Shown here piece by piece: positions 8,497 to 64,000 of a DNA stretch of 64,000 nucleotides. Each line of letters begins with the position of its first letter. Position 1 is the first letter of the stretch. Made by a program: the position numbers and the translations under genes. The DNA comes from a virus: positions 1 to 64,000 of the IMG/VR virus record IMGVR_UViG_3300043788_000049; one strand, 5' to 3'. The notes beneath the pieces were generated by a model. That model did no database searches and was not told where the DNA came from. It was given only the letters and a program-made list of their open reading frames with translations.

Positions 8497-9137
8497 TAGT
8501 CCAATTCAGCCAACGGCATACCGATCGGCAGGATCGAGCCGCGCGGCGCGCGCGAGGTAACCCAAGATCCCCAGGGCAGGCGGCCAGCGGGCAAGTCGAA
8601 CGACTCCTGCGACAGCGCCTCGATCTTCTTGCGCTTAACCAGCTTCTCCAGCCGATCGACTTTGGCGCCGTCCTGCTTGATCCGAGGCGCGATCAGCCAT
8701 GCGAGATAGCAGGCAAGATATTCAGAAAAGCCCGGCGTCCACAGGGCCATGTTGAGGCCGTAGCTCGGATCGTTGGAGACGTATTTGAAGTAGAGCGGCG
8801 CAATGTCCGCATACAGGACATAATTGACGTCTTCCATCTCTCGGATCAGCGGGTTGAACGCCTCGTTATCCGCGACTTGGTAGGTTTTGACCCAATCGGG
8901 AGGTTTGGTGAAGCAGAACTCAAAGCCAAAGGCGGGGGACTGATTCGCATCCGGGTTGAGCTGCGAAATGCGGATCGCCCATCTCCAATATCCGGAATAG
9001 AGGCAGAACAGAATGGCGTTACTCCACTCGTCATCCAAGTAACGCTTAGGTTCGCGGTTCTCCGTCAAAGAAGATAATTTTCTTTCTTCCAAGTATCGGA
9101 GTGCTGCATTGTATAGACCGATTTGTGAAGCTGCCAT
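8496..9137 (-). CDS. Tail tubular protein A / adaptor
   Basis: IGLYNAALRYL...W.WA...PPDW...F.EYLA..LA..IAP pattern, directly upstream of tube B. Confidence 0.8.
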   Translation of the reverse strand: MAASQIGLYNAALRYLEERKLSSLTENREPKRYLDDEWSNAILFCLYSGYWRWAIRISQLNPDANQSPAFGFEFCFTKPPDWVKTYQVADNEAFNPLIREMEDVNYVLYADIAPLYFKYVSNDPSYGLNMALWTPGFSEYLACYLAWLIAPRIKQDGAKVDRLEKLVKRKKIEALSQESFDLPAGRLPWGSWVTSRAPRGSILPIGMPLAELD

Positions 9138-9142
9138 AATAC

Positions 9143-9649
9143 TTACCCCGCTCTCGCGAAATCGCCGAAATACTGTGATGCGGCGGATACGTATACAGCG
9201 TGGGCCTCTTCCTTCGTTTCAAATCTGCCAAGATAGAAGCACTGTCCACTCACCGTGATTTGCGCGTTCCATTTTCCAGCACACCAACGGACCCCTTTAA
9301 ATCCCGAGGTATTGGTTGATCGCTTCGGCGTGTTGGCCATGTTCCCGCTGCGCGTCGCCTCGCGGAGATTGGCCCAGCGGTTATTGCCCTTGTCCAAGTC
9401 GATGTGGTCAAGCTCGTGCGGCCAGCGTTCCGTCATATAGAAGAAGGCGAGGCGGTGGGCTTTGTAGAGCACCTTGTCGATCATGAGCGGCGTGTGCCGC
9501 CCCTTGCCAGGGCAGCCCGCCCGCTGGCCTTTCTGAGCGCGCGAGCCCATTGTGACCAGCCATGTGAACTCGCCACTGAGCGGGTCGTAATGGACGACCT
9601 CACGCAGACGCGCGTAGGTCAGCGGCGGGTTCTGCATCGGCTTCGCCAT
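9143..9649 (-). CDS. HNH homing endonuclease with C-terminal AP2-like domain
   Basis: YDPLSGEFTW...AHRLAF...DHIDLDKGNNRWANLREAT...NTSGFKGV...YLGRF. ATG at 9649 overlaps the upstream TAA. Confidence 0.85.
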   Translation of the reverse strand: MAKPMQNPPLTYARLREVVHYDPLSGEFTWLVTMGSRAQKGQRAGCPGKGRHTPLMIDKVLYKAHRLAFFYMTERWPHELDHIDLDKGNNRWANLREATRSGNMANTPKRSTNTSGFKGVRWCAGKWNAQITVSGQCFYLGRFETKEEAHAVYVSAASQYFGDFARAG

Positions 9650-12095: not shown

Positions 12096-12287
12096 ATCCG
12101 GCTCGCGGCGTCCTTGATGGCCTCGCTGGTCGAAAGGCCGCGATTGCGCGCTTCCGGGAACGCCACGCTGAAGGCATTCCTCACGCGCCTCTCCTTGCTT
12201 TTATTGCGAACCCGGCGCTTGAAAATGCGGCCATCCTTCATCACGCGCGGATTTCCCCCGCTCTCGAAATAAAAATGCTGCATTGGC

Positions 12288-13070
12288 TCACACAGGCGCG
12301 CGCTGCGGCTCGGGGGGTGGAGTGAGCCCATTGAGCAATTCCTTCACGCCGGCGAGCGTGCGGCCCTCGATCCCCATCTTCTGGAGTTCGATTTCCCTGG
12401 CGTATTTGGTCCGCAGCCACGGCCCGAGCGCGCCGACTGATTCGGTCTGCCATTTGTGGTGGAGGATCAATTCCGGGTCGATCCAGGTCTTCTCGCCGAG
12501 GGCCGCCCATTTCTTGCAGAACGTGTAATCCTCGCCCCACAATTGATGGGTGGCCTTGTTGAATTGGAACTCGAAGAGGTTGAACAGGCGCTTGCCGGGC
12601 GCCGTCATGTCCTCATACCACTCGTCCTGGTGGGCCGCGACGAGCTTCTCCGCGCAATCGCGCCGGATGCGCAGGAACCCGGTCGGCGACGCTTCGACCT
12701 CCATCAGACCGGTCTTCTCGTCGAACATCAGCCGATCCTGCCAGGGCTTGAAGACGAAGCCCTCCTTGTCGCCGCGGTGCGGATAGACGCCGCCGACCAG
12801 CGCCACGTCATGGCTCATCAGCCGCGTGAAGCAGCCCGATTCCGCCCAGACATCGGAATCGACGCACATCATGTCGTCGAAGTTGCCTTCGAGGAATTGG
12901 GCAAAGAGCACGGCGCGCGCGCGCGGGAGGATCGAATCCGTGGTGCGCAGCGTGAAATCGCAGCCCCATCCCTTGGCGTTCGCCTCCTGCGACATCTTCG
13001 CGATGCTGGCGTGATAGCGATAATCAAGCTCCCCGTTGTAGGTCGGGGTAGCGATCAGGATTCTGCGCAT
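12288..13070 (-). CDS. Glycosyltransferase-like protein (GT-A fold)
   Basis: ILIATPTY, ILPRARA, VDSD (DxD), GGVYP, PTGFLRI, GEDYTFCKKW..LG..W.DP. Confidence 0.8.
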   Translation of the reverse strand: MRRILIATPTYNGELDYRYHASIAKMSQEANAKGWGCDFTLRTTDSILPRARAVLFAQFLEGNFDDMMCVDSDVWAESGCFTRLMSHDVALVGGVYPHRGDKEGFVFKPWQDRLMFDEKTGLMEVEASPTGFLRIRRDCAEKLVAAHQDEWYEDMTAPGKRLFNLFEFQFNKATHQLWGEDYTFCKKWAALGEKTWIDPELILHHKWQTESVGALGPWLRTKYAREIELQKMGIEGRTLAGVKELLNGLTPPPEPQRAPV

Positions 13071-13102
13071 GTGGGGAATCTCGCTGGCGAAATGCTGCCA
13101 GC

Positions 13103-13142
13103 AGATAAGATTAGGGCCGCTCCGGTGTCAATGGAGCGGCCC
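13103..13142 (-). promoter_or_regulatory. GC hairpin after the decoration gene with TTGACA in its loop (terminator/promoter)
   Basis: Stem GGGCCGCTCC (13114-23)/GGAGCGGCCC (13133-42). Minus-strand TTGACA at 13131-26 and TTATCT 17 nt downstream. Confidence 0.55.
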
Positions 13143-13166
13143 CAAAGTCAGAGCGTGAACTTATGA

Positions 13167-14414
13167 TCAAAGGTCGGCGGTAGCCTGGATGAAGCCGGAG
13201 TTGGGCTGCCGGCTGACCAGAAGCGCGGCCTGACCCGAGGCGGCGGTCGTGGTGCTGACCACGTTGATGAAGTTGACCGTATGCGTCGACCCGGCGGCGA
13301 AGCCGGAGACGGCGGCCGTGGTGCCGATGACATAGAGGGCGAACGAGCCGGCGAGGACCGTGACGGTCGGCGGGGAGCGCATCTGAACCGGCAACGGGAT
13401 GAAGATCGTCTCGTTGTTGGTGGTGATGACTTCGCCGGAACCGACGATCGAACCCGAAGTGCCTTCGTTGATCTGGAAGAAATAACGCTGGCAGATTTCC
13501 AGTTCGACCTGGACGTCGCGGTGCTCGAAGGCGGTCGGCCCCGTGCCGGCCTCAAGCTGGACGCCCCACATATAGATATTGTCGCCCACCACCGCGTTGG
13601 AGTTCGTCGGTGAATAGGAGAACAGGGCGGCGAGCTGGGTCGCGCTGGTCGGAACCGTCCCATAGAAGGAATAGCGGGTCGGGGTCGAAGTCAGAGCCTG
13701 GGTCGCGCTGATGACGTTGTTATAGCCCGTCCAAGTGCCGGCGACGGCGGAGGTAGCCGACTGGTTGGTGCCGCTACCCATGGCCAGCGTGACGCCCATG
13801 TTGGCGCCTGAGAAGCCGGTATTGGCCGCAGCCCAGAAGGATAGCGTGACAGGCGATCCCTGCATGCGAATGCTGTCCAGGCTCTCCAGGACCTGCCCGA
13901 AGGTGATCGTAGAGACGGTGGTGCCGGACGTGCCACGGCCCCACTGGAAGGCTTGCGAGAAGGTCGGAACCGATGTGGTAGCGACGTTCGACACGGTGGC
14001 CGAGGTCGCTGCGGCGCCGGCAATGAGGAACCAGCGATCAGCCGTGTAGACGGCGGTCGTGCCGATGTTCGAGAAGAAGTTGCCGCGCTGCCACGGGTTG
14101 ATCGTCGCGTCGCCGCCGTCGAGGAGGTTGCGGAAGTTGGACGACAGATAGCCGGCTTGCGCGCCAAAGAAGGGCGCGACGGTGGCCGCGCGAGACGTCG
14201 AGGTCGGGCTATTGGTGACGTAAGCCTGATAGGTCACGCCGCCAGCGACAATATTGACGATGTCGCCCTGCTCCATGCCGCGCGCAGCGCCATCGGAGAA
14301 GTAGCCGGCGCTGAACACCGTCGCGATGCCGTCGGGCGAGACGTAGAAGAATTCGCCCTGATTGCCCTCGATCGTCTGGGCAATGCGGGACAGAAAGTTG
14401 CCGTTATAGGCCAT
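13167..14414 (-). CDS. Capsid decoration protein fused to a Ser/Thr-rich beta-sandwich, fibre-type domain
   Basis: Directly after the capsid gene. N-terminal AGYFSDG..RGM..GDIV; C-terminal NLLDGGD..PWQRG..YTADRW..GVQLEAG..PTAFEHR..ELEICQRYF. Confidence 0.65.
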   Translation of the reverse strand: MAYNGNFLSRIAQTIEGNQGEFFYVSPDGIATVFSAGYFSDGAARGMEQGDIVNIVAGGVTYQAYVTNSPTSTSRAATVAPFFGAQAGYLSSNFRNLLDGGDATINPWQRGNFFSNIGTTAVYTADRWFLIAGAAATSATVSNVATTSVPTFSQAFQWGRGTSGTTVSTITFGQVLESLDSIRMQGSPVTLSFWAAANTGFSGANMGVTLAMGSGTNQSATSAVAGTWTGYNNVISATQALTSTPTRYSFYGTVPTSATQLAALFSYSPTNSNAVVGDNIYMWGVQLEAGTGPTAFEHRDVQVELEICQRYFFQINEGTSGSIVGSGEVITTNNETIFIPLPVQMRSPPTVTVLAGSFALYVIGTTAAVSGFAAGSTHTVNFINVVSTTTAASGQAALLVSRQPNSGFIQATADL

Positions 14415-15562: not shown

Positions 15563-16087
15563 TTAGGCGGTCAGCCAATCGAATCTGGCGAACTCGCCCC
15601 ATATGGCTTCAGCCGCCGCGCGGTAGACTGCGCGGGCTTCTTCGAGGGTGTCATAGGTGCCAAAGAATTGGCCCCGCGCTCGCACCTGATATTTTCCAGT
15701 CGATTTAAGCTTGTGGACGCCTTTGGCCCCCGAAGTGTTGCGCGTGCTGTTTGCCATGTTGGCGAGGTTCTGTGAGCCGGTGGCTGGGCGCAGATTACTC
15801 CATCGATTATTGAGTTTATCTGCATCTTGGTGATCAAGGTCGAAACGGCACCACTCTCCCGTCATCAGAAGATATGCGATTCGATGTGCTAGAAAGGAAT
15901 CCTTAAATAGGCCGACAACGCGATAGCCATCTATGCTGATTTTGCCAGCGATCTTGCCGGGGGCTGATTTCCCGCTACGCGCGGGCTGTTTTATCCAAAT
16001 GAGGTCGCCGCTATCCGGATCGTATGCGAGAAATTCTGCGATTTGCTCGAATGTCGGGAGTTGTTCTATCGTTCGACGAGCCGTCAT
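15563..16087 (-). CDS. HNH homing endonuclease (HNH-AP2 type)
   Basis: YDPDSGDLIW...LAHRIAY...DHQDADKLNNRWSNLRPAT..QN...NTSGAKGV. Confidence 0.85.
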   Translation of the reverse strand: MTARRTIEQLPTFEQIAEFLAYDPDSGDLIWIKQPARSGKSAPGKIAGKISIDGYRVVGLFKDSFLAHRIAYLLMTGEWCRFDLDHQDADKLNNRWSNLRPATGSQNLANMANSTRNTSGAKGVHKLKSTGKYQVRARGQFFGTYDTLEEARAVYRAAAEAIWGEFARFDWLTA

Positions 16088-16164
16088 GATCCGCTCCACG
16101 GGTCTGATGGTTAGGAGCCGCAGGCCGTGCAACCGACCTTGCGGCTCTGTCTTTCTAGCACGAA

Positions 16165-17268
16165 TCACGCCGCCTTGCGCGGGTTCCCATTCTCGTCGAT
16201 CAAGCCCTGCTTCATGAGCGCATCGAGAATATCCCGATATTCCTGTTGCATGGGCTGGCTCTGCGGGCCGAAATAATAGGGATTGCTCCGGTCGGCCATG
16301 CCGCGGCGCATGTGACCCTCGATTTCGCCCTTGCGATCCATGGCGGATTTGACCGGATCGCCCTTGTCGCCCAGGACCAGAGCGCCGAATGGGTTGTTTT
16401 GCAGCATCGTCGCCGCGGCCCATTCCATGAAATCAGGCCGGTTGCCGATCAACTTCCCGTCCGGCCCGCGCGCGCCGATGATGTCCTGGAACAGCGTGTT
16501 GCCGTCGAAGAAGCTCAAGGCCGCGTTGTAGCGCTTGGTATATTCCGCGCCCCACTTCGCCCGAAGGCTCGTGTCGGCCTGGAGGGTGTCTTTATTGTCC
16601 TGTTGGGAGAGGCGATCGACCGATTGCTGCTGCTCGGAGGCATACCAAGCCAGCATGTCCCGGAAGGCCTCGGGCGCAAGATTGTGTTCGAGGGCGTGGG
16701 CCTTGAAGGAATCAAGCGCCGGCTTGTCGTATTCGCCCCAGACCCAGCCATTGCCGATGTCGGTCGAATAGCCTTCCGCCGAGTCCGGGATGCCGTGGCT
16801 CTTGCGATATTCAGCCAGTTCCTCCGGCGTGTAGTTGTTCGGGAGGGCCTTTTTCAGGTCCCCCGAGGACATGCGCTGCTCCATCGCCAGCCATGATTTG
16901 CCGATGGCTTCCGGCGACGTGAACCGCGCGAGACGGTCGATCAGGGATTTCGGCGGGTTGGGGCCGGCGATCTCCTTGGCGAATTTCTCGCGCCAGTCGG
17001 CGGGCCAGTCGGCAGGCGTGGCCGGCGGCGGCTGCGTGCCGTCAAGGGGTTTCTGGGCGAGGGTTGTGGGCTTGGCCGGCGCGGGCGGTGCAGGTGGAGC
17101 GGGTGGAGCGGGTGGAGGCGCATCGCCAGCCGGCGGGGCCGCGGGCGGCGTGGCAGGCGGAGTAGCCGGCGGCGCAGGAGGCGGGGCGGTCGGATCGCTG
17201 CCGGTGGGCGGCGGCGCGACAACGCCAGGACGGCCGCCATCGGGGTTCTGGGTGTCGCCGTCAGCCAT
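16165..17268 (-). CDS. Capsid scaffolding/assembly protein
   Basis: Pro/Ala-rich N-terminus, WPADWRE, GIPDSAEGY, LRAKWGAEY. Lies between portal and capsid genes. Confidence 0.8.
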   Translation of the reverse strand: MADGDTQNPDGGRPGVVAPPPTGSDPTAPPPAPPATPPATPPAAPPAGDAPPPAPPAPPAPPAPAKPTTLAQKPLDGTQPPPATPADWPADWREKFAKEIAGPNPPKSLIDRLARFTSPEAIGKSWLAMEQRMSSGDLKKALPNNYTPEELAEYRKSHGIPDSAEGYSTDIGNGWVWGEYDKPALDSFKAHALEHNLAPEAFRDMLAWYASEQQQSVDRLSQQDNKDTLQADTSLRAKWGAEYTKRYNAALSFFDGNTLFQDIIGARGPDGKLIGNRPDFMEWAAATMLQNNPFGALVLGDKGDPVKSAMDRKGEIEGHMRRGMADRSNPYYFGPQSQPMQQEYRDILDALMKQGLIDENGNPRKAA

Positions 17269-32684: not shown

Positions 32685-32936
32685 TTACGCCCTCTTGGCG
32701 CGTAGCTCATCAAGGACGTCGAAGAGATTGGGGGGATCGGTGAATGATTGCAAAGTCCAGACCCCGAATCTATTTAATCGCCACGTCCATCCAGCCTGAT
32801 GACCATTGAGCGCGTTTAGCCAAAGCACGCCACCGCGCCGGCGAAGCTGGAAATCAATATTCTTTGGGCAGATAGAGAGGGGTCCTAGCTCATCCTCCGA
32901 CAGATCGCCAACGCCTGGAAGCTTCTCAATGCTCAT
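32685..32936 (-). CDS. Small protein with C-terminal PNLFDxLDELR motif
   Basis: Ends PPNLFDVLDELRAKRA; start overlaps the upstream gene. Confidence 0.7.
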   Translation of the reverse strand: MSIEKLPGVGDLSEDELGPLSICPKNIDFQLRRRGGVLWLNALNGHQAGWTWRLNRFGVWTLQSFTDPPNLFDVLDELRAKRA

Positions 32937-33204
32937 GGGCCCGCAATTCCTCAATGATGTCAAATAGATTGGGGTTTGGGTCCAACCACACCGGACAAAG
33001 CGTGCCGTCGCACCCGTAACGCCACTCGTTCCCCAAAAATATGCGCTGCCATGTAGAGTCTGGATACTTAGAGCGATCTTCCGCCATCAGAGGGCCAAGG
33101 ATGCTCGGATAAGCCAGCCAATCGCCATCTTCCGGCAGCGCATTGACCGCTTCCAGCTCGATCGCCGTCAGCCGCCGCGCGCCTTCTCGAATCATGACGC
33201 TCAT
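32926..33204 (-). CDS. Small protein with the C-terminal motif
   Basis: Ends PNLFDIIEELRAHEH; ATGA coupling. Confidence 0.7.
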   Translation of the reverse strand: MSVMIREGARRLTAIELEAVNALPEDGDWLAYPSILGPLMAEDRSKYPDSTWQRIFLGNEWRYGCDGTLCPVWLDPNPNLFDIIEELRAHEH

Positions 33205-33479
33205 TTGCGCAACTCGTCCAAGATGTCGAAAAGGTTGGGGCCGACCATCGCCCGGAACTCCTCATCGGGGCTTATCTGTTGCCACTGATACGAGTGGCCG
33301 CTCGAACTCACGTTGAGGGCGCAGACGACACTATTCTGGGTATTGCGCAGCCAAATCTTGCCGTCAGCGGCACGCTCTACTGTCCAGTTCACCTTCTTAT
33401 CCAGCGCCCGCAGAGCCTCTAATTCAATCCGCGTTGTGATGAATCTTCCGTCATTTGGTTCAAGTGTGAGGACCGTCAT
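33201..33479 (-). CDS. Small protein with the C-terminal motif
   Basis: Ends GPNLFDILDELRK; ATG at 33479 overlaps the TylF stop. Confidence 0.7.
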   Translation of the reverse strand: MTVLTLEPNDGRFITTRIELEALRALDKKVNWTVERAADGKIWLRNTQNSVVCALNVSSSGHSYQWQQISPDEEFRAMVGPNLFDILDELRK

Positions 33480-34258
33480 TTGCGTAACCAGCGAACCGAG
33501 AAGTCCACATGCGCCAGATAGGGCCTGATCCTCAGCGTTGAGAAGAACTCGTTGCAAGCGTCCCGACATCCTTTGAGGCACCAGTCATCGATAATCACGA
33601 AGCCGCCGGGCACGACCAGATCCCATAGGTGGTCGAACGCGACCTTGTAGCTGTCGTAGAGGTCGCCATCGAGCCGCAGGATTGCGATCGGGCCAACGTA
33701 ATCGACCGGAACTGTGTGCTGGAACCAGCCCTTGTGGATGTGCAGATCGTCCAGCGGATAGCCGATTTGCGCCATCAGCCCGATCACATCGCCCAATTTA
33801 GCATCGCCGAGCGCGCCAGCGGCTTCGAGCGCGCCATCGCAGCGCCCAGGCGGCAATTTCTGCGTTTCGCACGCCCAGATTATGTCGTCCTTGTCGAACC
33901 GAGGCCACGGAATGCCCTCGAAACTGTCAAAAGCGTGCAAAGCCCGGCGGCGAGAGCCAAACTTGAGATTGGCGAGCGCCATCGCGCCCAGAGCTCCGCC
34001 CCGCCAACAGCCCAATTCAACAAATGCGCCCGGTATCGCTTCCTCCTCGCAATAGCGGACCTGATCAATTAATGTCGCAATCCCGTCATACGTGACCATG
34101 GTGTGAAGCTTGATGGCCTCGATGATCGGCCACATGACCGTGTGCTCGTCGCGATAGCCGCGCGACATGAACTGCGAGTGGATCATCGCGTCCCCGATCG
34201 AGATAGCCTGCGATGAGAAACATTGGTCCGATGGGCCAACCCCTGGGTAAATCATCAT
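33476..34258 (-). CDS. TylF/MycF/NovP-family O-methyltransferase
   Basis: PGAFVELGCWRGG, FDSFEG, KGWFQHT, LRLDGDLYDS, PGGFVIIDD, GCRDA. Confidence 0.9.
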   Translation of the reverse strand: MMIYPGVGPSDQCFSSQAISIGDAMIHSQFMSRGYRDEHTVMWPIIEAIKLHTMVTYDGIATLIDQVRYCEEEAIPGAFVELGCWRGGALGAMALANLKFGSRRRALHAFDSFEGIPWPRFDKDDIIWACETQKLPPGRCDGALEAAGALGDAKLGDVIGLMAQIGYPLDDLHIHKGWFQHTVPVDYVGPIAILRLDGDLYDSYKVAFDHLWDLVVPGGFVIIDDWCLKGCRDACNEFFSTLRIRPYLAHVDFSVRWLRK

Positions 34259-34303
34259 GCTTGATCCGGCGAGTTCCGTTGGTTAAGAGGCAGTTTATCA
34301 CAG

Positions 34304-34507
34304 ATGGAGACGCGAGTGGAAACCCCGAGCGACAAATTGGACCGAGCGAAGCGCGATAAGCTGCTCGATATTATCCGGCGAGTGATCGCCAACCCGGAGA
34401 ACGCCAAGGAAGCCGCGGACGAGATCGCGCAAGACTGGTTTCCGATGATCAAGGTTGATGCCCGCGGCGCGATACACTTTCGTGTGGGCTCGGGCCGCAA
34501 ACGATAG
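34304..34507 (+). CDS. Hypothetical protein
   Basis: First of three closely spaced plus-strand genes. Confidence 0.5.
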   Translation: METRVETPSDKLDRAKRDKLLDIIRRVIANPENAKEAADEIAQDWFPMIKVDARGAIHFRVGSGRKR

Positions 34508-34516
34508 GAGCGACCA

Positions 34517-34696
34517 ATGAAGCTGATCCTCGCGTTGTTCGTGGCCCTCGGCCTCTCGGGATGCGCCACGGGCAACTATCCGAGCCAAGACTATAGCTGG
34601 GAGCACCACGAGGACCATGGATGGGACCACCCAGACCATCATGGCGACTGGCGTCATCCGAATCACCGCCGGCTCAAACATCAGGCAAAGCCATGA
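34517..34696 (+). CDS. His-rich lipoprotein (59 aa, not in the ORF track)
   Basis: AGGAG SD; MKLILALFVALGLSG|C lipobox; WEHHEDHGWDHPDHHGDWRH. Confidence 0.7.
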   Translation: MKLILALFVALGLSGCATGNYPSQDYSWEHHEDHGWDHPDHHGDWRHPNHRRLKHQAKP

Positions 34697-34902
34697 GCAT
34701 CATTTCCAGCGTCGATCTGGCCCGCAAGCTCGTCATCATGGCGTCCGGCGAGGAAGTCCCGATCACCAATATGTTCGATCGGCACGGCGAGGAAGTGACC
34801 GACCCGCGCCGCGCCGCGACCGTCGTTGCCGGGCCATGTGAGGCGGGATGGATTGCCACTGTCCTTAGCGAGGAGGAGCGGGAGGAGTTGGAGCCAGCGT
34901 AG
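34693..34902 (+). CDS. Hypothetical protein
   Basis: ATGA overlap; MSIISSVDLARK...PITNMFD. Confidence 0.55.
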   Translation: MSIISSVDLARKLVIMASGEEVPITNMFDRHGEEVTDPRRAATVVAGPCEAGWIATVLSEEEREELEPA

Positions 34903-35173
34903 CGCGCAATTCCTCGATCACGTCAATGATGTTGGGGCCGGGCTCCTCCCACGCCTCAATGATCGGCCATTCCTCCAACTCGGGTTGGCGCAGATCGCGC
35001 GGCAGCCACCTGCCGTTGCTCATCAGAGCCCACACTCCTTGGATATTTCGTAGCATGAGCCCGTGGGCGTGCCGTGAGAGCACAAAATTAAGCGGAAGGT
35101 CTGAGCGCACTCGCTCGACCGCCCGTTCCTCAGCCTCACTCATCGGGAGGCAGTTAGGGTCATATCGGATCAT
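34865..35173 (-). CDS. Small protein with the C-terminal motif
   Basis: GPNIIDVIEELRATL near the C-terminus; ATGA coupling. Confidence 0.65.
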   Translation of the reverse strand: MIRYDPNCLPMSEAEERAVERVRSDLPLNFVLSRHAHGLMLRNIQGVWALMSNGRWLPRDLRQPELEEWPIIEAWEEPGPNIIDVIEELRATLAPTPPAPPR

Positions 35174-35418
35174 CGCCGCGCCCGCAGTTCGTCGAGGAGA
35201 TCGAAGAGGTTGGGGGCGTCTACGGATAAGACGATCCAATGCCCGTCGAGCCCCGTTTCCTTTTCCCATGCCATTCTCGGGAAATGGCCATTTTCATCAA
35301 CTGCGACGAAGGTGGCGAACTCGTAGCGAAACGTGCATATCCACTTGCCACCGCGAGGCAAAAGATCCGCGCCCGTGAAGATGCGCCCATCGGGCGTAAA
35401 GACCGGACTGCTAGCCAT
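35170..35418 (-). CDS. Small protein with the C-terminal motif
   Basis: Ends APNLFDLLDELRARR. Confidence 0.7.
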   Translation of the reverse strand: MASSPVFTPDGRIFTGADLLPRGGKWICTFRYEFATFVAVDENGHFPRMAWEKETGLDGHWIVLSVDAPNLFDLLDELRARR

Positions 35419-35653
35419 CCCGCTTGGCCTCCAGCGCGCGTAGCTCCTCGATCACGTCCACAATGTCAGGGCCGGGAGGGGGCGGGTTCTTCCACGCATC
35501 ATACTGCGCGGTCCAATCGATCCGGAGCGGATAGAGCCAATGAAGCACGAAGCCGAGAAGAAGCCCGAGCCCGAGGATCACGATTGAACCCATCATCACG
35601 ATCGCCAGAAAGCCCAGGGCGATATTCACGACCATGTCGGGATCAATCATCAC
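35411..35653 (-). CDS. Membrane-anchored small protein with the C-terminal motif
   Basis: Long hydrophobic N-terminus; ends GPDIVDVIEELRALEAKRDG; coupled to the VWA stop. Confidence 0.7.
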   Translation of the reverse strand: MMIDPDMVVNIALGFLAIVMMGSIVILGLGLLLGFVLHWLYPLRIDWTAQYDAWKNPPPPGPDIVDVIEELRALEAKRDG

Positions 35654-36807
35654 GCACTCGGGTCCAGATCGAGCAACTTCCCGAACGGCGGCTTGTTCGA
35701 ATAGCCTCCATATCGCACCCAGAGCACCGGACAGCCGGGTTCCTGGCCGAAGCTATGGCAGCACAGGTCGGTCAGATAAACGACGCCAGAGGCCTTGGGA
35801 GCGTGTTCTGCGGTCCATCGGAAGGCCGGAGCGAAATCTGTCCCCCCTCCAGGCTTCGGACACACGTTGATGATGTCGCCGGCCTCGAACTCCAACGTCT
35901 CTTGGACCGCGCAATCGCAGAACCCGACAGTCAGCTTCTCGCACGCGCTCTCATCGAGGAAGCCCTGTAGCTCCGCCATGATCGCGGCCAGGGAGCGCTC
36001 GTCCATCGAGCCCGACGTGTCGACCCAAGCGACGATATGCGAGGGCGCGATCGAGCCCGACCCTGGAAGGATTATCCCGTCGCCATAGTCGCGGCGCGAC
36101 GGGCGCGTCCAATCGGTGTCAACGATGCGTGATTCGTCCGCCCAATCCCGGAATAGCTCCTTCCAGGTGATCGTGGGCTTGTCCAAATCGGCCATCATCT
36201 TGACCAGGGGCGCGGGAATCGAGCCGACGTTCTTGGCGCGCGCCACCGCCATCGCTTGTCGCACCTGCACCTGGGCGCGGCGCTCGGCCTCCTTCATTTC
36301 CGAGGAGGCATAGGGCGGCGCAGCGTCCATCACCCCGCCGCACTTGCCGGGGTCGCTGCCATCGCCCCCCTTGACCTTCTTCGCGTTCTTGACCAGCAGG
36401 TTGTAGACCTGCTCGGTCGACATGCCCTCGTATTTCTGGTCGTAAAGGTGCGGGTTCGGCAGCTTGATGCCAGCGCGCCGCAGATCGGCGTTAATGACGA
36501 AATCGCCGGCAATGTTCCAGATGTCGCCCTGGCGATCGCCGCGGCGCGTGTGGTGGAGATAGCAAACGTGCATCACTTCGTGCGCAAGGACAGCTTCAAG
36601 CTCCTCCATCTTCAGCTTCAGGACGAACGGCGCCCAATAGAACAGGCGCTTGCCATCCGTCGCCATCGTGTCGATGCCAGAGCCCTCGGGGCCCGGATGG
36701 ACCCCCATGTGCATGATCAAGACGGCGAAGAATGGCTGGCTCATCATCAGCCGCGCCCGTGCCTTCAGGATCTTCTTCTCAGCTTCGATCTGGTCTGGAG
36801 TCAGCAT
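35650..36807 (-). CDS. DUF2201-type metallopeptidase plus VWA domain protein (MoxR partner)
   Basis: TMATDG, AHEVMH (HExxH), WNIAGDFVIN, DTSGSM (MIDAS), GGGTDF, YLTD. Confidence 0.9.
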   Translation of the reverse strand: MLTPDQIEAEKKILKARARLMMSQPFFAVLIMHMGVHPGPEGSGIDTMATDGKRLFYWAPFVLKLKMEELEAVLAHEVMHVCYLHHTRRGDRQGDIWNIAGDFVINADLRRAGIKLPNPHLYDQKYEGMSTEQVYNLLVKNAKKVKGGDGSDPGKCGGVMDAAPPYASSEMKEAERRAQVQVRQAMAVARAKNVGSIPAPLVKMMADLDKPTITWKELFRDWADESRIVDTDWTRPSRRDYGDGIILPGSGSIAPSHIVAWVDTSGSMDERSLAAIMAELQGFLDESACEKLTVGFCDCAVQETLEFEAGDIINVCPKPGGGTDFAPAFRWTAEHAPKASGVVYLTDLCCHSFGQEPGCPVLWVRYGGYSNKPPFGKLLDLDPSA

Positions 36808-37238
36808 CAGAAATCTCCATCGGCGATCTGAGCGCAAGGGATTCCAAGCTTGCGCCATACATCCACGACGCGCTTCCTGTCCTCGAAAATCATGATCGGC
36901 TCGAACCCCGCCTCGCGCGCCTCAGCCAGCAACTCGACCTTGACCACGCTATCGTCTCGATAGTCGCCAGCCTTGCGCATGAAAAGGCCATGGATAAGCA
37001 CTCCGTGCTTGGTCAGCCATTCCACTGTGAGTTGCCGGCACTCATCAGAGCGCCCCGAGAGGCACACGACTGGCGCAGGGAGCATCTGCGCCAGATCGAT
37101 CATGTGAGGGATAGGCGCGTCGCCGTCGCACGCAGCGAAGAAGGCCCGCCAATCCTTTGGCTTCTTCTGGATGTGATGCAGCCGATGTGACGGGTCCGAA
37201 AGCGTCCCATCGATGTCGAAAAACCATGCCCGCTTCAT
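36807..37238 (-). CDS. HAD phosphatase (PNKP 3'-phosphatase-like)
   Basis: FDIDGTL, LSGR, D..VK, FEDR..VV. Confidence 0.88.
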   Translation of the reverse strand: MKRAWFFDIDGTLSDPSHRLHHIQKKPKDWRAFFAACDGDAPIPHMIDLAQMLPAPVVCLSGRSDECRQLTVEWLTKHGVLIHGLFMRKAGDYRDDSVVKVELLAEAREAGFEPIMIFEDRKRVVDVWRKLGIPCAQIADGDF

Positions 37239-37249
37239 TTTCTGCCCCC

Positions 37250-38245
37250 CTAGATCGAGATGTCCTGGTTCCGCGTCGCCCACTCGGTGTAGGCCTTGGT
37301 GGTCTTGAGCGAGGGATCGCGCTTGACCGCATCCGTGACCAGCGTCATCTCGAAGTCCTTGGTCAACCGGCCGCCATAGATGAGGATCGCTTCGAAATTT
37401 CCCCGATCCGCCTTGCGGGCCAGAGCGCCAACCACCGCAAATTGGGTGTTTGGAGCCGATGGAACCGCAGCCTTCCTCGGATGCGCGATGATCTCGGCCA
37501 AGGGCGGTAAGGTTTTATACGTCTGAATGAACGCCTCCAGTTCCGACGCCGCGCCCTCGCCAACTAATCCCTCGATCAGCTTTTGCCGAATATCGTCATC
37601 GGCATGGATGACCTTGGCGACCTGGACCCAGGACCGCGGCGACGGGAACGCCCGAACCTCGATGTTCTGCGGGACATTGTGGAGCAAGGCCGGCCGATAG
37701 CGCAGGAAGGCGCAGATGAGCGGTTCGATCAGCGCCTTGTTGGCCCAGGACTGCCAAGCGTCCATGTCCTCCTCGACGTCGATCCAGGCAAAGCGATTCG
37801 CCAAGCCAACCGGCATCTTGTTGACGCCGGAGCGGTCGATCTGCCGATTGCCCGCGGCGACGATCATTGTCCGGGGAGGCAATTTATGCAGGCCGACAGC
37901 CCGATTCCACACCAGTTGGAAAAATGCCGTTTGCACAGAAACGCTTCCCTGAACTAATTCGTCGATGAACAGCATCGTCGGCCTGTCGCCGTAGCTCTCC
38001 AGCTCCGTCAGCCACTTCGGCTTGGCCCAATCGACGCCCGCATCCGCCCGGAAGGGCAGGCCACGAACGTCAACTGATTCGAGCGTCGTCGCGCGCTCCT
38101 CGACCAGCACAGCGCCCAGCTCATCGGCGACCTGATAGACGCCCTCCGACTTGCCGATGCCGTTCTTGCCGGAAATCATCACCGACATCCCAGCCGCGAG
38201 ATAGGCTTTCAGGCACTTCTTAGCCATCGTGACGTTCATAGGCAC
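37250..38245 (-). CDS. MoxR-like AAA+ ATPase
   Basis: GKNGIGKS (Walker A), DVRGLP, LFIDEL (Walker B), AAGNR, LANRF, PSPRSW. Confidence 0.9.
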   Translation of the reverse strand: MPMNVTMAKKCLKAYLAAGMSVMISGKNGIGKSEGVYQVADELGAVLVEERATTLESVDVRGLPFRADAGVDWAKPKWLTELESYGDRPTMLFIDELVQGSVSVQTAFFQLVWNRAVGLHKLPPRTMIVAAGNRQIDRSGVNKMPVGLANRFAWIDVEEDMDAWQSWANKALIEPLICAFLRYRPALLHNVPQNIEVRAFPSPRSWVQVAKVIHADDDIRQKLIEGLVGEGAASELEAFIQTYKTLPPLAEIIAHPRKAAVPSAPNTQFAVVGALARKADRGNFEAILIYGGRLTKDFEMTLVTDAVKRDPSLKTTKAYTEWATRNQDISI

Positions 38246-38539: not shown

Positions 38540-38700
38540 GATTTCCCCTTTCCTCACTTTCCCATAAATGAGGCCGTAGAGCCGGTCAAGCGAAATCTGG
38601 CTGTTTCCCCCAATAATATGGGCGTGGGCAGTTGACATGCGCCAGAATATCATATCTAAGGAGCGTGGGGCGATCGTGTCCCAATCGAAAGGGGTTAAAA
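38540..38700. promoter_or_regulatory. Divergent promoter region
   Basis: Minus-strand CTTGAC at about 38586-91 and plus-strand TTGACA at 38632-37; flanking genes diverge from here. Confidence 0.5.
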
Positions 38701-38895
38701 ATGTTAACCATTCACCGCACCGCCCAAGAATGCCAGAACCTCGCCGCTACCTTCGCCAAGGACGCCCTCGAAGCCCAGGAGCGCGGCGACGAAGGGATCG
38801 CCTGGGCCTTCATGGCCAAGTCAGCCTATTACGAGAATGAGGCCCTGGAGCAAATGAAGATCGAAGACCAGATGGCCGAAGCCCTCGCGGCGTGA
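38701..38895 (+). CDS. Hypothetical helical protein
   Basis: AGGGG SD; first gene of the plus-strand arm. Confidence 0.6.
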   Translation: MLTIHRTAQECQNLAATFAKDALEAQERGDEGIAWAFMAKSAYYENEALEQMKIEDQMAEALAA

Positions 38896-38906
38896 AGGAG
38901 GACACC

Positions 38907-38996
38907 ATGAGAATCACACCGATCGAATTAGCTCTGATCCTCGCCCTGGTGGCGCTGGCTGTCACCGTCTCTATCGCAACAACCGCAGGGGTGTGA
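38907..38996 (+). CDS. 29-aa hydrophobic peptide resembling a Flp/type IV pilin alpha1 helix
   Basis: AAGGAGG SD; MRITPIELALILALVALAVTVSIATTAGV. Confidence 0.6.
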   Translation: MRITPIELALILALVALAVTVSIATTAGV

Positions 38997-39007: not shown

Positions 39008-39286
39008 ATGAACCCCCACGCCCAGGCAGTCGAGGCGATCATGGAGGCGGTGGCGGAATATGCGCCGCCGCTGGATAAGCCTGTGGGGTTTCTCCATGAA
39101 TTTCTCGACCGCGCGGCGTTATTGGACTTGGACGGAGCCGAAAACTATTTGCGGTGGTTGCTGAACTTGCCGACGGACACGCCCGGCATTCTCGTGCAAC
39201 ACGGATTCCGGTGGGAACGGGAGCCTAATAAGCGGCGCAGAGAGATCCTCGTGAACTGGCTCCGGCGCGTAAGGTTCATGAAATGA
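39008..39286 (+). CDS. Small protein with N-terminal HxxxVxxI motif
   Basis: MNPHAQAVEAIMEAVAEYAPP. Confidence 0.65.
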   Translation: MNPHAQAVEAIMEAVAEYAPPLDKPVGFLHEFLDRAALLDLDGAENYLRWLLNLPTDTPGILVQHGFRWEREPNKRRREILVNWLRRVRFMK

Positions 39287-39828
39287 CCAAGCGCCACGTC
39301 CACCACATCGACGGCAACCCCAACAACCACGACCTCGCCAATCTGAGGTTGGTAAAGGCGAGCGTTGGCGTGTCGCCGAACTTGAACCCGGTGCCGCTTG
39401 GGAAGCTCTACGGCCGCTCCCCCGGCTCGCTCCCTGCCGACTTCGAAGAAGCGATGGACCGGATTAATTCATTCAACCGTCGCTTCAAAACCCGCCTCGT
39501 GAAGGTGACGCCCCCGCCGGCTAACAAGGAACATGCGGCGGAGGTCCAGAGCATTCTGGAGACGGTGTGCTCGGTGGACTTCGCGCCATCGCCCCAAGGA
39601 TTGCCAGGGATGCCCACTGAGGCTGATTTCGCCTATGCAGCCAGTATGGACAGCGCGGGCCGCGCCCTTGGGCATGTAGGCCGTCTTGCTGCCAATCTCT
39701 GCGGGTATTCAGAGCAAGTATTCGATTGGACTGTTGGCGAGGGACGCGCTTGGCTAGGGGCTACTCGCTCCTTCCGCCGCGATTGGCTCCGAGGCAAGGT
39801 CGAGCGCGCCTTGAGGGCCCGCCGATGA
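39283..39828 (+). CDS. HNH-remnant N-terminus fused to a motif-bearing domain
   Basis: VHHIDGNPNNHDLANL, then internal EHAAEVQSILETV. Confidence 0.6.
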   Translation: MTKRHVHHIDGNPNNHDLANLRLVKASVGVSPNLNPVPLGKLYGRSPGSLPADFEEAMDRINSFNRRFKTRLVKVTPPPANKEHAAEVQSILETVCSVDFAPSPQGLPGMPTEADFAYAASMDSAGRALGHVGRLAANLCGYSEQVFDWTVGEGRAWLGATRSFRRDWLRGKVERALRARR

Positions 39829-40124
39829 CCCACGCCGCCGAGGTCGAGCGCATCCTGGCCCATGCCGAGGAGTATCTGGCTCCGCCGCAGCGGGTTTTTG
39901 ATGCAGACTGGCTGACGGAGTGGTGCAAGGGCATGAGCGGTTTTTCGGCAGGGATCGCCGCCATATCCTGCGTGAGTTATTTCAAGCTAGATGAGCCAGA
40001 GGCGATGGTCGCCGACTTGCTTAACCGCCTTGGCTGGAGGGTGGCCGGAGCTACCGCGCGCGTCACAATCATTCGCAATGCCTTGAGCATCTTTGGCGTC
40101 CGGACGAAGCAGGCTCGCCCATGA
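39825..40124 (+). CDS. Small protein with the N-terminal motif
   Basis: MTHAAEVERILAHAEEYLAPP; ATGA overlaps. Confidence 0.7.
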   Translation: MTHAAEVERILAHAEEYLAPPQRVFDADWLTEWCKGMSGFSAGIAAISCVSYFKLDEPEAMVADLLNRLGWRVAGATARVTIIRNALSIFGVRTKQARP

Positions 40125-40420
40125 CCAACGACGCCCATAGCGCCCAGGTGGAGGCGATACTGGAGCAAATCGGGGCGTTTGCCTTCACCCCAGGAACCAA
40201 CCTGCGGGTCTGCGTAGGCCAAATCGTTCCAGGTGATGTGATCGTTTGGGACACATGCCAAAGGATCGTGAGAAAAGTCCGGCATACCGGCGGCCAATAT
40301 ATCGAAGTCTCAATGAGAGGCGTTGACGGTAAGGTGTTCGACGTCGATTGGGACGTCACTCATCACGTCGAAATCCTCACCCCGCCATTGCCGGAATGTA
40401 TCGCAAGAGGCTTGCTATGA
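40121..40420 (+). CDS. Small protein with the N-terminal motif and an SH3-like beta domain
   Basis: MTNDAHSAQVEAILEQIGAF...VGQIVPGDVI. Confidence 0.7.
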   Translation: MTNDAHSAQVEAILEQIGAFAFTPGTNLRVCVGQIVPGDVIVWDTCQRIVRKVRHTGGQYIEVSMRGVDGKVFDVDWDVTHHVEILTPPLPECIARGLL

Positions 40421-40644
40421 ACCCCGCCGATCACAAAGCCGCCGTCGAGGCGATCGAGGCAAAGGTCGCGGAGTATGAGGGGCCAGTGCCTGCCCACGAT
40501 CGCTGGACTGTCGATTTGGGTAGCACAACCATCACGCCACTCTTGAGCGGCAACTTTAACGTGCTGAGTGGGTATTACCTTGTCGCAACGCCGGAAGAGG
40601 CAGCAAAAAACCAACGAGCCTTTTGGGAGAACCTAGACCTATGA
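40417..40644 (+). CDS. Small protein with the N-terminal motif
   Basis: MNPADHKAAVEAIEAKVAEYEGP. Confidence 0.65.
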   Translation: MNPADHKAAVEAIEAKVAEYEGPVPAHDRWTVDLGSTTITPLLSGNFNVLSGYYLVATPEEAAKNQRAFWENLDL

Positions 40645-40889
40645 CCGACGCCGTGACCATCAAGTCCTTCTCCGAACTCGCCAAGGAATGGCGGACCCGC
40701 AACCGCTACTCCCGCCCCCAGCTCTCCGAGCTGACGGGATACTCCCCCTCGGCCATCCAGGACATCGAGGAGGCGATCTACCGCTCCCCGCCCCATCCGG
40801 TCAGCCCGGAGGTCATGCGGCGCTACCGGCTGATCTGCGCCGCGGTGGAGCACAAACTGACGGATTGGGAATTTACCGATCGGGGATGA
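40641..40889 (+). CDS. XRE-family HTH regulator
   Basis: KEWRTRNRYSRPQLSELTGYSPSAIQDIE. Confidence 0.75.
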   Translation: MTDAVTIKSFSELAKEWRTRNRYSRPQLSELTGYSPSAIQDIEEAIYRSPPHPVSPEVMRRYRLICAAVEHKLTDWEFTDRG

Positions 40890-40890
40890 A

Positions 40891-41163
40891 ATGACCCACG
40901 CCTCACAGGTCCAGGCCATCCTCGATCGCGTCGCGGAGTGGGAGACGCCGCATGCCGCGGTGATCGAAGCAGCCTTGGAGCAAGCCGCGCACATGGCTCC
41001 GGGCGAAGCCTTACGCTGGCTCAACGCTCGCTTCGGGACGCCAATCCCGCAGTTTTGGGTCCAGCACGAGGTAGGAACGTGGGGATCGATAATAAAGATT
41101 GAGGAGCGCATCGTTTGGCTGCGGCGAAATTGCCTCAGCCCGACGCTAGGCTCCGGGTCTTAA
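40891..41163 (+). CDS. Small protein with a tandem N-terminal motif (probable paralogue of 39008)
   Basis: [37 protein letters not shown]; shares LRWL..VQH..WLRR with 39008. Confidence 0.7.
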
Positions 41164-43739: not shown

Positions 43740-44042
43740 TCACCAGCAGAGGCCGAATAGGCCGCAAGGCGCGCTCTTGGGCTCCGGCTTTGCGACTACC
43801 GGGGTTGTCTCGGGAGGATAGTGGTCGTGGTGATGGCGATGATGATGGTGGTGATCCCGATCGCGGTCATGGTGGTGGTGGTGACGTCCATCTCGGTCGT
43901 GGTCGTGATGCCCCCGGTGCCCGTGGTGATGCCCTTCATGATGACCCCAATGGCCCTCGCCCTTACCCTTGCCGTGGTGGGCAAGAGCCGGCGAGGCAAC
44001 TGCCAAGGTGAGAATAGCAGCGCAAGCAAGTAGTCTTTTCAT
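43740..44042 (-). CDS. Secreted His-rich protein
   Basis: Signal peptide MKRLLACAAILTLAVASPALA, poly-His/Asp/Arg tract, ends CGLFGLCW. Confidence 0.7.
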   Translation of the reverse strand: MKRLLACAAILTLAVASPALAHHGKGKGEGHWGHHEGHHHGHRGHHDHDRDGRHHHHHDRDRDHHHHHRHHHDHYPPETTPVVAKPEPKSAPCGLFGLCW

Positions 44043-62568: not shown

Positions 62569-62799
62569 TCACTTCTTCCCCCGCTCGGCCTCGATCCGGT
62601 GGACCTCGGCGATCATGTCGAAGATGTCGGGCTCCGGCGGGTCCTCCTCTTCGTCGAGCAGGCCGATATCCCGCAGATAGTCGTGGCTGACATAGGTGAT
62701 GCCGCCCGCCCATGGGTGGTTAAGAGCGTGTCCGCCTGCCGGTGTTTCGAAGGCGTCGACGAGCAAGCCTTGCCAGTTCGGAGGATCGCCAATGGTCAT
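62569..62799 (-). CDS. Small protein with a variant C-terminal motif
   Basis: Ends EPDIFDMIAEVHRIEAERGKK; ATGA-coupled to the large virion gene. Confidence 0.6.
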   Translation of the reverse strand: MTIGDPPNWQGLLVDAFETPAGGHALNHPWAGGITYVSHDYLRDIGLLDEEEDPPEPDIFDMIAEVHRIEAERGKK

Positions 62800-64000
62800 C
62801 GCGGAGCCGGAGTAAAGATGCGGGGCCAGCGGGAGGGTAGCATTTCTCCCGGTTTCCAGAAATACTGCTGGCCTGTTTCCTTCCTAAGTTTTTCAGCTTG
62901 CTGCCAGAACTCACGGTGCGCATCCGGGTCGGTCGCATACTGCGCCTGATCGAGGATCATCCGGTTGAACGCCGCGCGGATCGGCCATGCTGTCGCGGCG
63001 ACGGGCGTATAGCCTTGCGCAAATCGCCGCCCCGCCTTCGCGAAGACCTTGCGCCACGGCTGCTTCTGCGTGCCGGATTGCCAGTTGCGAAGAAGATCGA
63101 GGGCGCCCTGCCCGGCGTTGATGGGGAATGTGGCGACCGGCCCCGCCAGGGTTTCGAGCGGCCCTTGGCCGAAGGATGAAATGTCGGAGGTCAGGAAGTC
63201 GCCGAATAGACCGAAGGAGGCCGAGGTCGCCAGGGCGCGAACCCAGGTCGAGAAGCCAACGCGCGATGTAGGGTCCATAGGCAGCGCATCCTTGCCAGCG
63301 GCGATCTGCTTTAACTGGAGCGACATCATCCCCATCATCCAGAGGATCGGGATGAAAGCGGCGAGATAAGCGATGCCGTGCCAGTTGCTTCGGGCGAACT
63401 CGCGCTGGAGCCCGAGGGCTTGGGTGATCGTGTAGGTGCCAATGAAACCCTTGAACATGCCGAAGGATAGCGCGAGCGCTCTGGGCGCCCCCCCCGGCAC
63501 CGTGCCGCCAAGCATTGTCGCCGAAAAGCGCATGGAGTGTTGCGGGACGGCGACCTCTCGCTCGCCCTGCATATAGGTGTTGAGGTTGATCCCCACCTGC
63601 CGGGCGATCTCCTCGGCGGCCTCTTGGTCCTTGGTCGGATCGAGCGATGGGCGGCCATAGGCTTGCAGGACTTCCTGCGGCTTCAGGCTCCCAGCATCGG
63701 GAATGTCGATCGGCCGGAGCCACTTCGCGGAGCCGACCGATGGCTCATAAAGCTCGGCGAGCTGCATGACCTTCCAGTCGCGCTCATCCATCCCGTAGCC
63801 CTGGAGCTTCGTGCGCACGCGCTCAGGAAGCCCGGACCAGGACTGCTTGATGTTGTCGGCGAAGAAAGCCATGTGGCCGCGGAAGTTGGCGGCCTTGTGG
63901 GCATTGACGACCGGGATAAGGCCCGTCCAGTGGGTGGTGCGGTCGGGGAGCCAGCGCGACCAGTTCGCCGCCTTGGCGAGCGCGCCGGACTGGCGAGCGA
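62796..64000 (-). CDS. Large internal virion protein, C-terminal part (enters from the window end)
   Basis: L..YG....DW, FGMFKGF, QLKQIAAGKD..PMD, FGLFGDFL, LAGP, typical of BPP-1/epsilon15-like largest ejection proteins. Confidence 0.75.
   Translation of the reverse strand, partial: ARQSGALAKAANWSRWLPDRTTHWTGLIPVVNAHKAANFRGHMAFFADNIKQSWSGLPERVRTKLQGYGMDERDWKVMQLAELYEPSVGSAKWLRPIDIPDAGSLKPQEVLQAYGRPSLDPTKDQEAAEEIARQVGINLNTYMQGEREVAVPQHSMRFSATMLGGTVPGGAPRALALSFGMFKGFIGTYTITQALGLQREFARSNWHGIAYLAAFIPILWMMGMMSLQLKQIAAGKDALPMDPTSRVGFSTWVRALATSASFGLFGDFLTSDISSFGQGPLETLAGPVATFPINAGQGALDLLRNWQSGTQKQPWRKVFAKAGRRFAQGYTPVAATAWPIRAAFNRMILDQAQYATDPDAHREFWQQAEKLRKETGQQYFWKPGEMLPSRWPRIFTPAPR

Follow-up and report, generated by a model that had tools for sequence, protein, structure and literature searches.

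The principle of a single terminal tag borne by many cargo domains has precedents. In bacteriophage T4, capsid-targeting sequences are short, conserved N-terminal peptides found on diverse small internal proteins that are encoded in a variable locus. The present work concerns an N-proximal helical motif, hereafter the N-tag, which is shared by six small proteins encoded at 39008–41163 of the virus record IMGVR_UViG_3300043788_000049 (IMG/VR). The stretch analysed, referred to as the window, is 64,000 nucleotides long and represents the first 64 kb of one 87,271-bp phage contig. This tag system has not yet been described in the literature searched. Its setting is unlike that of the T4 proteins: the array includes a putative regulator gene and lies beside a cassette encoding an AAA+ ATPase and a protein with a vWA-like domain, and in a sister phage a copy of the tag is found inside the ATPase itself.

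ATPases of the MoxR/midasin type operate in well-known pairs: midasin with the UBL domains of Rsa4 and Ytm1, RavA with ViaA, CbbQ with CbbO, and gp24 with gp25 in phage N4. To our knowledge, none of these pairs has been reported to come with a library of tagged small proteins. The cassette of the window resembles these systems, as its ATPase finds the best solved-structure matches among midasin AAA domains and its partner is vWA-like; it departs from them in that the vWA-like domain is fused to a zincin domain. In MoxR–vWA pairs, the vWA domain is thought to grip a short element or peptide of the client while the ATPase remodels that client (PMC7159879).

A further parallel is provided by the effector-associated domains (EADs) of MoxR–vWA conflict systems: one copy resides on a core component, others are located on the products of adjacent genes, and homotypic binding has been proposed (PMC7159879; Kaur, Burroughs, Iyer, Aravind 2020, eLife). 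Like the EADs, which are proposed coupling adaptors, the N-tags are small, mostly helical, non-enzymatic terminal modules present on several proteins beside a MoxR AAA+/vWA pair. Whereas EADs are full small domains attached to enzymatic effectors of cellular defence, the N-tag is a helix of ∼18 residues on tiny non-enzymatic bodies in a phage genome of lytic type. The comparison is one of layout, and EAD binding is itself only predicted. Tentatively, and with somewhat less than even confidence, we favour the view that the N-tag is a docking helix by which a rapidly evolving library of small domains is connected to the neighbouring AAA+/zincin–vWA machine.

The N-tag and the array that carries it

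The array is made up of seven head-to-tail genes, six of which are tagged:

39008..39286, + strand: gene A, 92 amino acids; N-tag at 39017-39070, body predicted to be all-helical
39283..39828, + strand: gene B, 181 amino acids; truncated HNH_3-like N-terminus (residues 5-27), linker, internal tag at 39532-39588 and helical C-terminal part
39825..40124, + strand: gene C, 99 amino acids; N-tag at 39831-39884, body of the helical family
40121..40420, + strand: gene D, 99 amino acids; N-tag at 40136-40192, then a six-stranded SH3/KOW-like beta-barrel
40417..40644, + strand: gene E, 75 amino acids; N-tag at 40432-40485, orphan body
40641..40889, + strand: XRE-type helix-turn-helix gene, 82 amino acids, within the array; tag absent
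40891..41163, + strand: gene F, 90 amino acids; N-tag at 40897-40950, an adjoining degenerate second copy, then a helical body related to that of A

An initial annotation, made from the sequence alone, had noticed that these proteins share the N-proximal motif HxxxV[EQ]xI[LME]. All six copies are found where it had placed them, with the tag His codons at 39017, 39532 (internal to the 181-amino-acid open reading frame, ORF), 39831, 40136, 40432 and 40897, and so is the second copy in gene F (residues 20–37 of F against residues 3–20 of A, 50% identity, E 0.001). The full motif exceeds the version given there and reads His, three variable residues, Val, Glu or Gln, one residue, Ile, one of Leu, Met or Glu, five residues, an aromatic residue, two residues and Pro. 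Across 18 tag copies from this phage and the sister phage, the His, Val and Ile are invariant, the aromatic residue lies at +14 and the Pro at +17/18. The strict core, H...V[EQ].I, occurs seven times in the six-frame translation of the 87,271-bp genome and six of these matches are clustered in this 2.1-kb array, all on one strand and in coding frames. The enrichment over shuffled sequence is clear: 200 nucleotide shuffles yielded a mean of 0.43 matches and a maximum of 2, and when the residues of the six array proteins were shuffled, the motif appeared in a mean of 0.009 proteins.

The copies vary at synonymous sites (CAC/CAT, GTC/GTG, ATC/ATT/ATA, CTG/CTC), and therefore it is the peptide, not a DNA element, that is under selection. 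An origin of the tag segment by recombination or as a DNA repeat was ruled out, given these synonymous-site differences and the lack of any outstanding identity at DNA level. The tag forms an amphipathic helix with a hydrophobic stripe composed of V5, I8, L9, V/M12 and Y15. AlphaFold2 (AF2) models place the helix at residues 3–21 of D and 3–17 of A, followed in both proteins by a linker of low confidence.

The description of the genes as mostly ATGA-coupled is borne out by ATGA overlaps at five junctions (A/B, B/C, C/D, D/E and E/XRE) and a spacing of 1 nt between the XRE-type gene and F; the product of the XRE-type gene, a putative regulator, matches Pfam HTH_31 with an E of 3.8e-5 and 24.4 bits, below the curated cut-off of 27. 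The G+C pattern at the three codon positions (GC1/GC2/GC3) of the array genes is like that of neighbouring real genes. A megablast search of the array against phage records gave no match.

The bodies attached to the tags are 50–80 residues long. Pfam and PHROG searches with the six tagged proteins returned only the HNH remnant in B and rows at chance level. Relationships among the bodies were assessed by removing the tag and running leave-one-out searches with hidden Markov models (HMMs) against 1,700 shuffled decoys. Once stripped of their tags, A and C group with a helical family that is represented in the sister phage as well (between 1 and 7 of the 1,700 shuffles were as good; for C, 7), and B and F are weakly linked to this A/helical group. 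A and F display 33% identity over 85 residues (E 3.6e-5). D belongs to a separate beta family, E fits neither, and no signal connects the helical and the beta families. About three body types are represented among the six proteins: not six, and not one homologous family throughout, although distant paralogy is possible for four of the six bodies. The earlier statement that the downstream domains differ, apart from those of A and F, therefore requires amendment: the relation between A and F and the distinctness of D and E stand, whereas A and C, and more weakly B and F, group together.

The AF2 model of D (pLDDT 78.6 overall, 82–88 in the barrel) shows the tag helix at residues 3–21 and strands between residues 27 and 86, and gives weak Foldseek matches (E about 3e-3) to the SH3/KOW-like domain I of eIF5A/EF-P. 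Look-alikes of D in the ESM Atlas include standalone phage proteins of 75–79 residues, which are leads only. The model of A consists entirely of helices at a pLDDT of 63, too poor for a fold search, and for gene C no usable ESM Atlas look-alike was obtained.

Gene B harbours an additional feature. An HNH_3 remnant at 39283-39366 (+) is fused in frame to the tagged protein: the first 27 residues correspond to the C-terminal half of the HNH_3 domain (Pfam E 8e-5, under the curated cut-off, covering only profile positions 20–42 of 46) and the tag follows at residue 84. The frame is backed by GC3 throughout the N-terminal half.

The neighbouring cassette and a sister phage

The array is transcribed divergently from a cassette on the - strand that extends from 38245 down to 35650:

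37250..38245, - strand: MoxR/midasin-type AAA+ ATPase, N4 gp24-like (PHROG 1297, E 6e-79); no tag insertion
36807..37283, - strand: HAD phosphatase of PNKP type (Pfam HAD_PNKP, E 9e-30), between the AAA+ and vWA genes
35650..36858, - strand: HExxH zincin fused to a vWA-like domain, N4 gp25-like (Pfam DUF2201_N, E 3e-37, and DUF2201, E 3e-22; PHROG 1314)

The phage matches of the ATPase are annotated as N4 gp24-like or MoxR-like, and the adjoining PHROG 1297 ATPase and PHROG 1314 protein with DUF2201_N and DUF2201 identify this as a cassette of the N4 gp24/gp25 type. PHROGs, like many phage records in GenBank, give the PHROG 1314 zincin–vWA family the label 'HNH endonuclease'. The label looks like a propagated misannotation, because Pfam reveals DUF2201_N and a VWA-like domain and no HNH domain.

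A word-based search with gene A among 5.8 billion proteins retrieved A alone, and relatives of gene C, or of the AAA+ ATPase as a single protein, were sought in viral contigs and not found. Relatives gathered via the AAA+ gene amounted to 160 loci, 80 from phages and 80 from metagenomes. An HMM built from the six tags of the window was run against 25,223 ORF fragments of the 80 phage loci and identified the tag only in L001/L002, where it matched ten array ORFs and an insertion in the AAA+ protein; the addition of the 80 metagenome loci did not change this outcome. The search in related phages that the initial annotation had proposed thus disclosed one carrier of the tag. L001/L002 is a 98.8-kb viral contig, the sister phage, whose AAA+, vWA and XRE-type proteins are 57%, 58% and 65% identical to those of the window.

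In the sister phage, eleven tagged genes are tightly packed on the strand that does not encode the AAA+ protein, with the orthologue of the XRE-type gene in the middle of the array, and six C-terminally tagged genes are located after the vWA gene, a layout that mirrors that of the window. A weak orthologue of gene A, n1, heads the array and an orthologue of gene D, n2, is recognizable without the tag (E 5.5e-6); the beta family has six members in this phage. Orthologous tagged bodies display ∼30% identity or less between the two phages, while the His, Val and Ile of the tag do not vary. The AAA+ ATPase of the sister phage harbours a 28-residue insertion with a full tag between the conserved RGLP and W..P segments, a location that we take to be the helix-2 insert from the alignment of the ATPase to midasin and MoxR and from general knowledge of the clade. 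The insertion is missing from 11 other AAA+ homologues. It ties the tag to the AAA+ machine.

An exhaustive search with the tag profile in 1.84 billion representative proteins produced 16 matches at E <=0.001. Fifteen of them are proteins of these two phages, each matching at the N-terminus. The sixteenth, which is the top match, is a 2792-amino-acid coiled-coil protein that was rejected as unrelated, its score stemming from 12 repeats.

DUF3150, the predicted complex and the genomic surroundings

The weak tail of the tag search fell repeatedly, in many loci, on the extreme C-terminus of one protein encoded next to the AAA+ gene. This family of ∼300 residues, of which 98 ORF fragments were matched in the fetched loci, carries the annotation DUF3150 in Synechococcus phage MinM2, in which it is flanked by a MoxR ATPase on one side and a VWA-like protein on the other. 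In most members the C-terminal helix conforms to A-x2-A-x2-I-L-x2-V-x2-F-L-A, whose hydrophobic spacing is common to the stripe of the tag. When the profile of the 18 tags was compared with that of the C-terminal 30 residues from 31 DUF3150 proteins, 17 columns aligned with a score of 20.1 (P 3.2e-5), a value reached by none of 400 column-permuted controls (maxima 17.8 and 13.4). The tags of the window and those of the sister phage, taken separately, each matched the DUF3150 C-terminus with a P of 7e-5, and against the full-length DUF3150 profile the C-terminal helix was again the best match (P 1.5e-3). The C-tag, an acidic amphipathic helix from the same phages that is described below, scored only 8.7–9.2.

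The profile comparisons constitute moderate evidence that the N-tag may derive from, or mimic, the DUF3150 C-terminal helix. The likeness is limited to this helix and the tag core, that is, to 17 columns, and does not amount to homology over ∼300 residues; unlike the DUF3150 helix, the tag possesses an invariant His and Val and occupies N-terminal or internal positions rather than the C-terminus. DUF3150 is absent from the genome to which the window belongs, as judged by tblastn and by an HMM of 78 members (best E 0.5). In the sister phage a DUF3150 gene is retained at 8251-9153, in the orientation of the tag array. No convincing DUF3150-helix-like tags were detected on small proteins in the other 158 loci.

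A complex prediction was carried out with the AAA+ ATPase, the zincin–vWA protein and a 30-residue tag segment, alongside three controls. The tag scored 0.33 and the best of the three controls 0.00, a result that provides weak support; the control that retained the tag with a substitute for the vWA chain likewise scored 0.00. Contact agreement between the runs is at least 68%, and the pLDDT of the partners is at least 58. Of 80 solved complexes, 58 reach the mark set for such scores, as do 2 of 110 mismatched pairs; those that reach it at 0.60 or under are 7 of the 80 solved complexes and both of the passing mismatches. No solved structure is available for vWA–zincin or DUF3150 partners. The prediction nudges the odds towards the zincin–vWA protein as a possible receptor, and no further.

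Beyond the cassette, a second group of tagged genes is encoded on the same strand:

32685..35653, - strand: six small genes ending in a C-terminal helix tag of the P-N-L-F-D-x-L-D-E-L-R type, arranged as two triplets with a TylF-like methyltransferase gene between them
33476-34258, - strand: TylF-type O-methyltransferase gene (Pfam E 3e-38), between the C-tagged triplets

Their counterparts in the sister phage, the six C-tagged genes that follow the vWA gene, are located at 12241-13897 (+). The consensus of the C-tag is lineage-specific, being P-N-L-F-D-x-L-D-E-L-R in the window and W-D-A-I-E-E-L-R-A-S-E in the sister phage. The proposal that N-tag and C-tag are one motif, both containing V-[ED]-x-I-x-E, was discarded as the profile score of 8.7 is at the level of permuted controls. 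Far from both arrays, a small ORF at ∼62570-62883 (-) has a C-tag-like end, P-P-E-P-D-I-F-D-M-I-A-E-V-H-R-I-E (HMM E 12), and could be a seventh C-tag member.

Small proteins with extremely His-rich tails (runs of H, HG and HD) are encoded near the arrays, at 43740-44042 (-) and 34517-34696 (+) in the window and at 2546-2791 (+) in the sister phage. Their N-termini are signal-peptide-like or lipoprotein-like, and they may be secreted metal-binding proteins.

The contig probably represents a complete phage genome, circularly permuted or with terminal repeats, because it ends in an exact direct terminal repeat of 127 bp (1-127 and 87145-87271 of the contig). A head and tail module on the - strand occupies ∼1–22 kb and encodes a T7-like portal, the major head protein, tail proteins and the terminase; a partial scan of the ORFs of the head module revealed no protease. 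The remaining features of note are the following:

15563-16423, - strand: full-length HNH gene (PHROG 99, E 9e-50), between the head protein gene and a putative scaffold gene
38701-38895, + strand: 64-amino-acid ORF heading the + strand operon before gene A; tag absent, no Pfam family
38907-38996, + strand: ORF for a hydrophobic 29-amino-acid peptide just 5' of gene A, below the 40-amino-acid ORF cut-off; tag absent, ribosome-binding site GAAGGAGG upstream

A promoter scan pointed to a single weak sigma-70-like site at 38625-38653; the number of promoter and terminator sites in the region is not above that in shuffled sequences.

Competing readings and the meaning of the tag

Under the docking reading, the ∼18-residue amphipathic N-terminal helix, set off by a Pro-containing linker, would act as a common docking tag by which small non-enzymatic domains, among them helical bundles and an SH3/KOW-like barrel, are all attached to the same receptor. 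The best candidate for this partner would be the MoxR-type AAA+/zincin–vWA machine that the phage itself encodes next door, with the zincin–vWA protein as the favoured contact. As DUF3150, the usual third subunit of the cassette, is absent from this phage, its position may be filled by the tagged proteins, which would then be interchangeable subunits that serve as adaptors or select substrates. If the vWA domain grips clients as in the model outlined above, the tagged proteins would be adaptors, regulators or clients.

A number of observations weigh against this interpretation. Neither a genome-wide motif search nor the tag HMM detects a copy of the tag in the AAA+, vWA or other large proteins of the window. 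The complex score falls in a range that is more often wrong than right. Since four of the six bodies are candidates for distant paralogy, part of the sharing may reflect common descent. The DUF3150 similarity is only moderate and could be due to convergence of amphipathic helices: in the full-length comparison the score of ∼21 has to be set against a background of 15 for the next-best DUF3150 region, 15 for AAA+ and 10 for vWA. Moreover, conservation of the DUF3150 C-terminal helix is average overall and confined to one face; this helix may simply belong to the fold and not be a docking peptide.

Other accounts of the N-tag have to be considered. The six genes might be plain tandem paralogues whose N-terminal helix is the slowest-evolving remnant of the ancestor and an ordinary part of the fold with no tag role. 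Arrays of diverged small paralogues are common in early regions of phages, and the genes examined here are small, tandem and translationally coupled; A and C, and more weakly B and F, resemble one helical family, and the beta family of the sister phage has six members. This explanation appears rather unlikely as the helix precedes both an all-beta barrel and helical bodies with no detectable relation to that barrel, lies internally after an HNH remnant in gene B, is inserted in an AAA+ ATPase in the sister phage, and keeps its His, Val and Ile where the bodies drop to ∼30% identity or less. An alternative is EAD-like homotypic coupling: the tags would bind each other, form mixed oligomers and be recruited to a core protein that carries a copy, such as the ATPase of the sister phage. 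That phage fits the EAD pattern, in that a core component bears one copy and the products of adjacent genes bear others, and the two tandem copies in gene F could pair as a hairpin. In the window, however, the core components are devoid of the tag, the bodies are tiny and non-enzymatic and belong to no Pfam or PHROG family, unlike effectors linked to EADs, and in the only complex run the weakly supported placement on the AAA+/vWA pair depended on the vWA chain. Homotypic coupling is an improbable account, and is kept as a rival rather than adopted because the pattern that holds for the sister phage does not hold for the window.

The zincin domain fused to the vWA domain next door introduces a different scenario, in which the tag serves as a timing signal or as a leader to be removed: clipping at the Pro-rich boundary, by the HExxH zincin or by a host protease, would activate, release or destroy the small proteins. 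Each tag ends at aromatic-x2-P, in keeping with such a putative site, and the predicted placement of the tag depends on the zincin–vWA chain (0.33 against 0.00 for the best control, weak support). The complex prediction which had been suggested for leader and partner reported no interface, so that the peptidase site and the vWA site are not distinguished; the copies in the ATPase loop of the sister phage and inside gene B would also be cut. On balance we consider cleavage quite unlikely. Least likely is capsid targeting as for the T4 internal proteins, the analogy drawn in the initial annotation, whereby the proteins would be loaded into proheads via the tag and then injected. The likeness is conceptual only: in both cases a variable locus encodes assorted small proteins that share a conserved N-terminal peptide. 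The genomic context and the tag copy inside the ATPase make this explanation very improbable: at least 17 kb separate the array from the T7-like head genes, which are encoded on the other strand; of the ORFs of the head module that were scanned, none was seen to encode a protease; the operon includes a putative regulator gene and adjoins genes of N4 gp24/gp25 type; and the tag resembles the DUF3150 helix. What endures of the original proposal of a leader or docking helix is a separate N-terminal helix with an invariant His that precedes at least two unrelated bodies and recurs in a second phage, for which docking is the best reading; the T4 analogy is abandoned.

If docking is accepted, a bolder and more doubtful proposition can be formulated. 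The cassette might be a programmable remodelling or proteolytic machine with exchangeable specificity subunits, in which DUF3150 is supplemented, in the sister phage, or wholly replaced, in the phage described here, by libraries of small proteins; these would dock via a copy of the DUF3150 helix, the N-tag, and via a second, unrelated helix, the C-tag, each protein bringing a different, fast-evolving recognition domain, for example against targets in host defence or takeover. A literature search on DUF2201 in phages and on DUF3150 returned no paper that reports such a tag or assigns a function to either family. The AAA+/vWA pair is widespread in N4-like and many other phages and in plasmids, and a tag that marks clients or adaptors would, if the docking reading is correct, provide a direct experimental handle on this cassette. 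The system would also be a phage example of the logic of one adaptor helix and many cargo domains, so far only predicted for bacterial MoxR–vWA conflict systems. A frozen tag combined with quickly diverging bodies is what would be expected of proteins that interact with host targets which themselves change.

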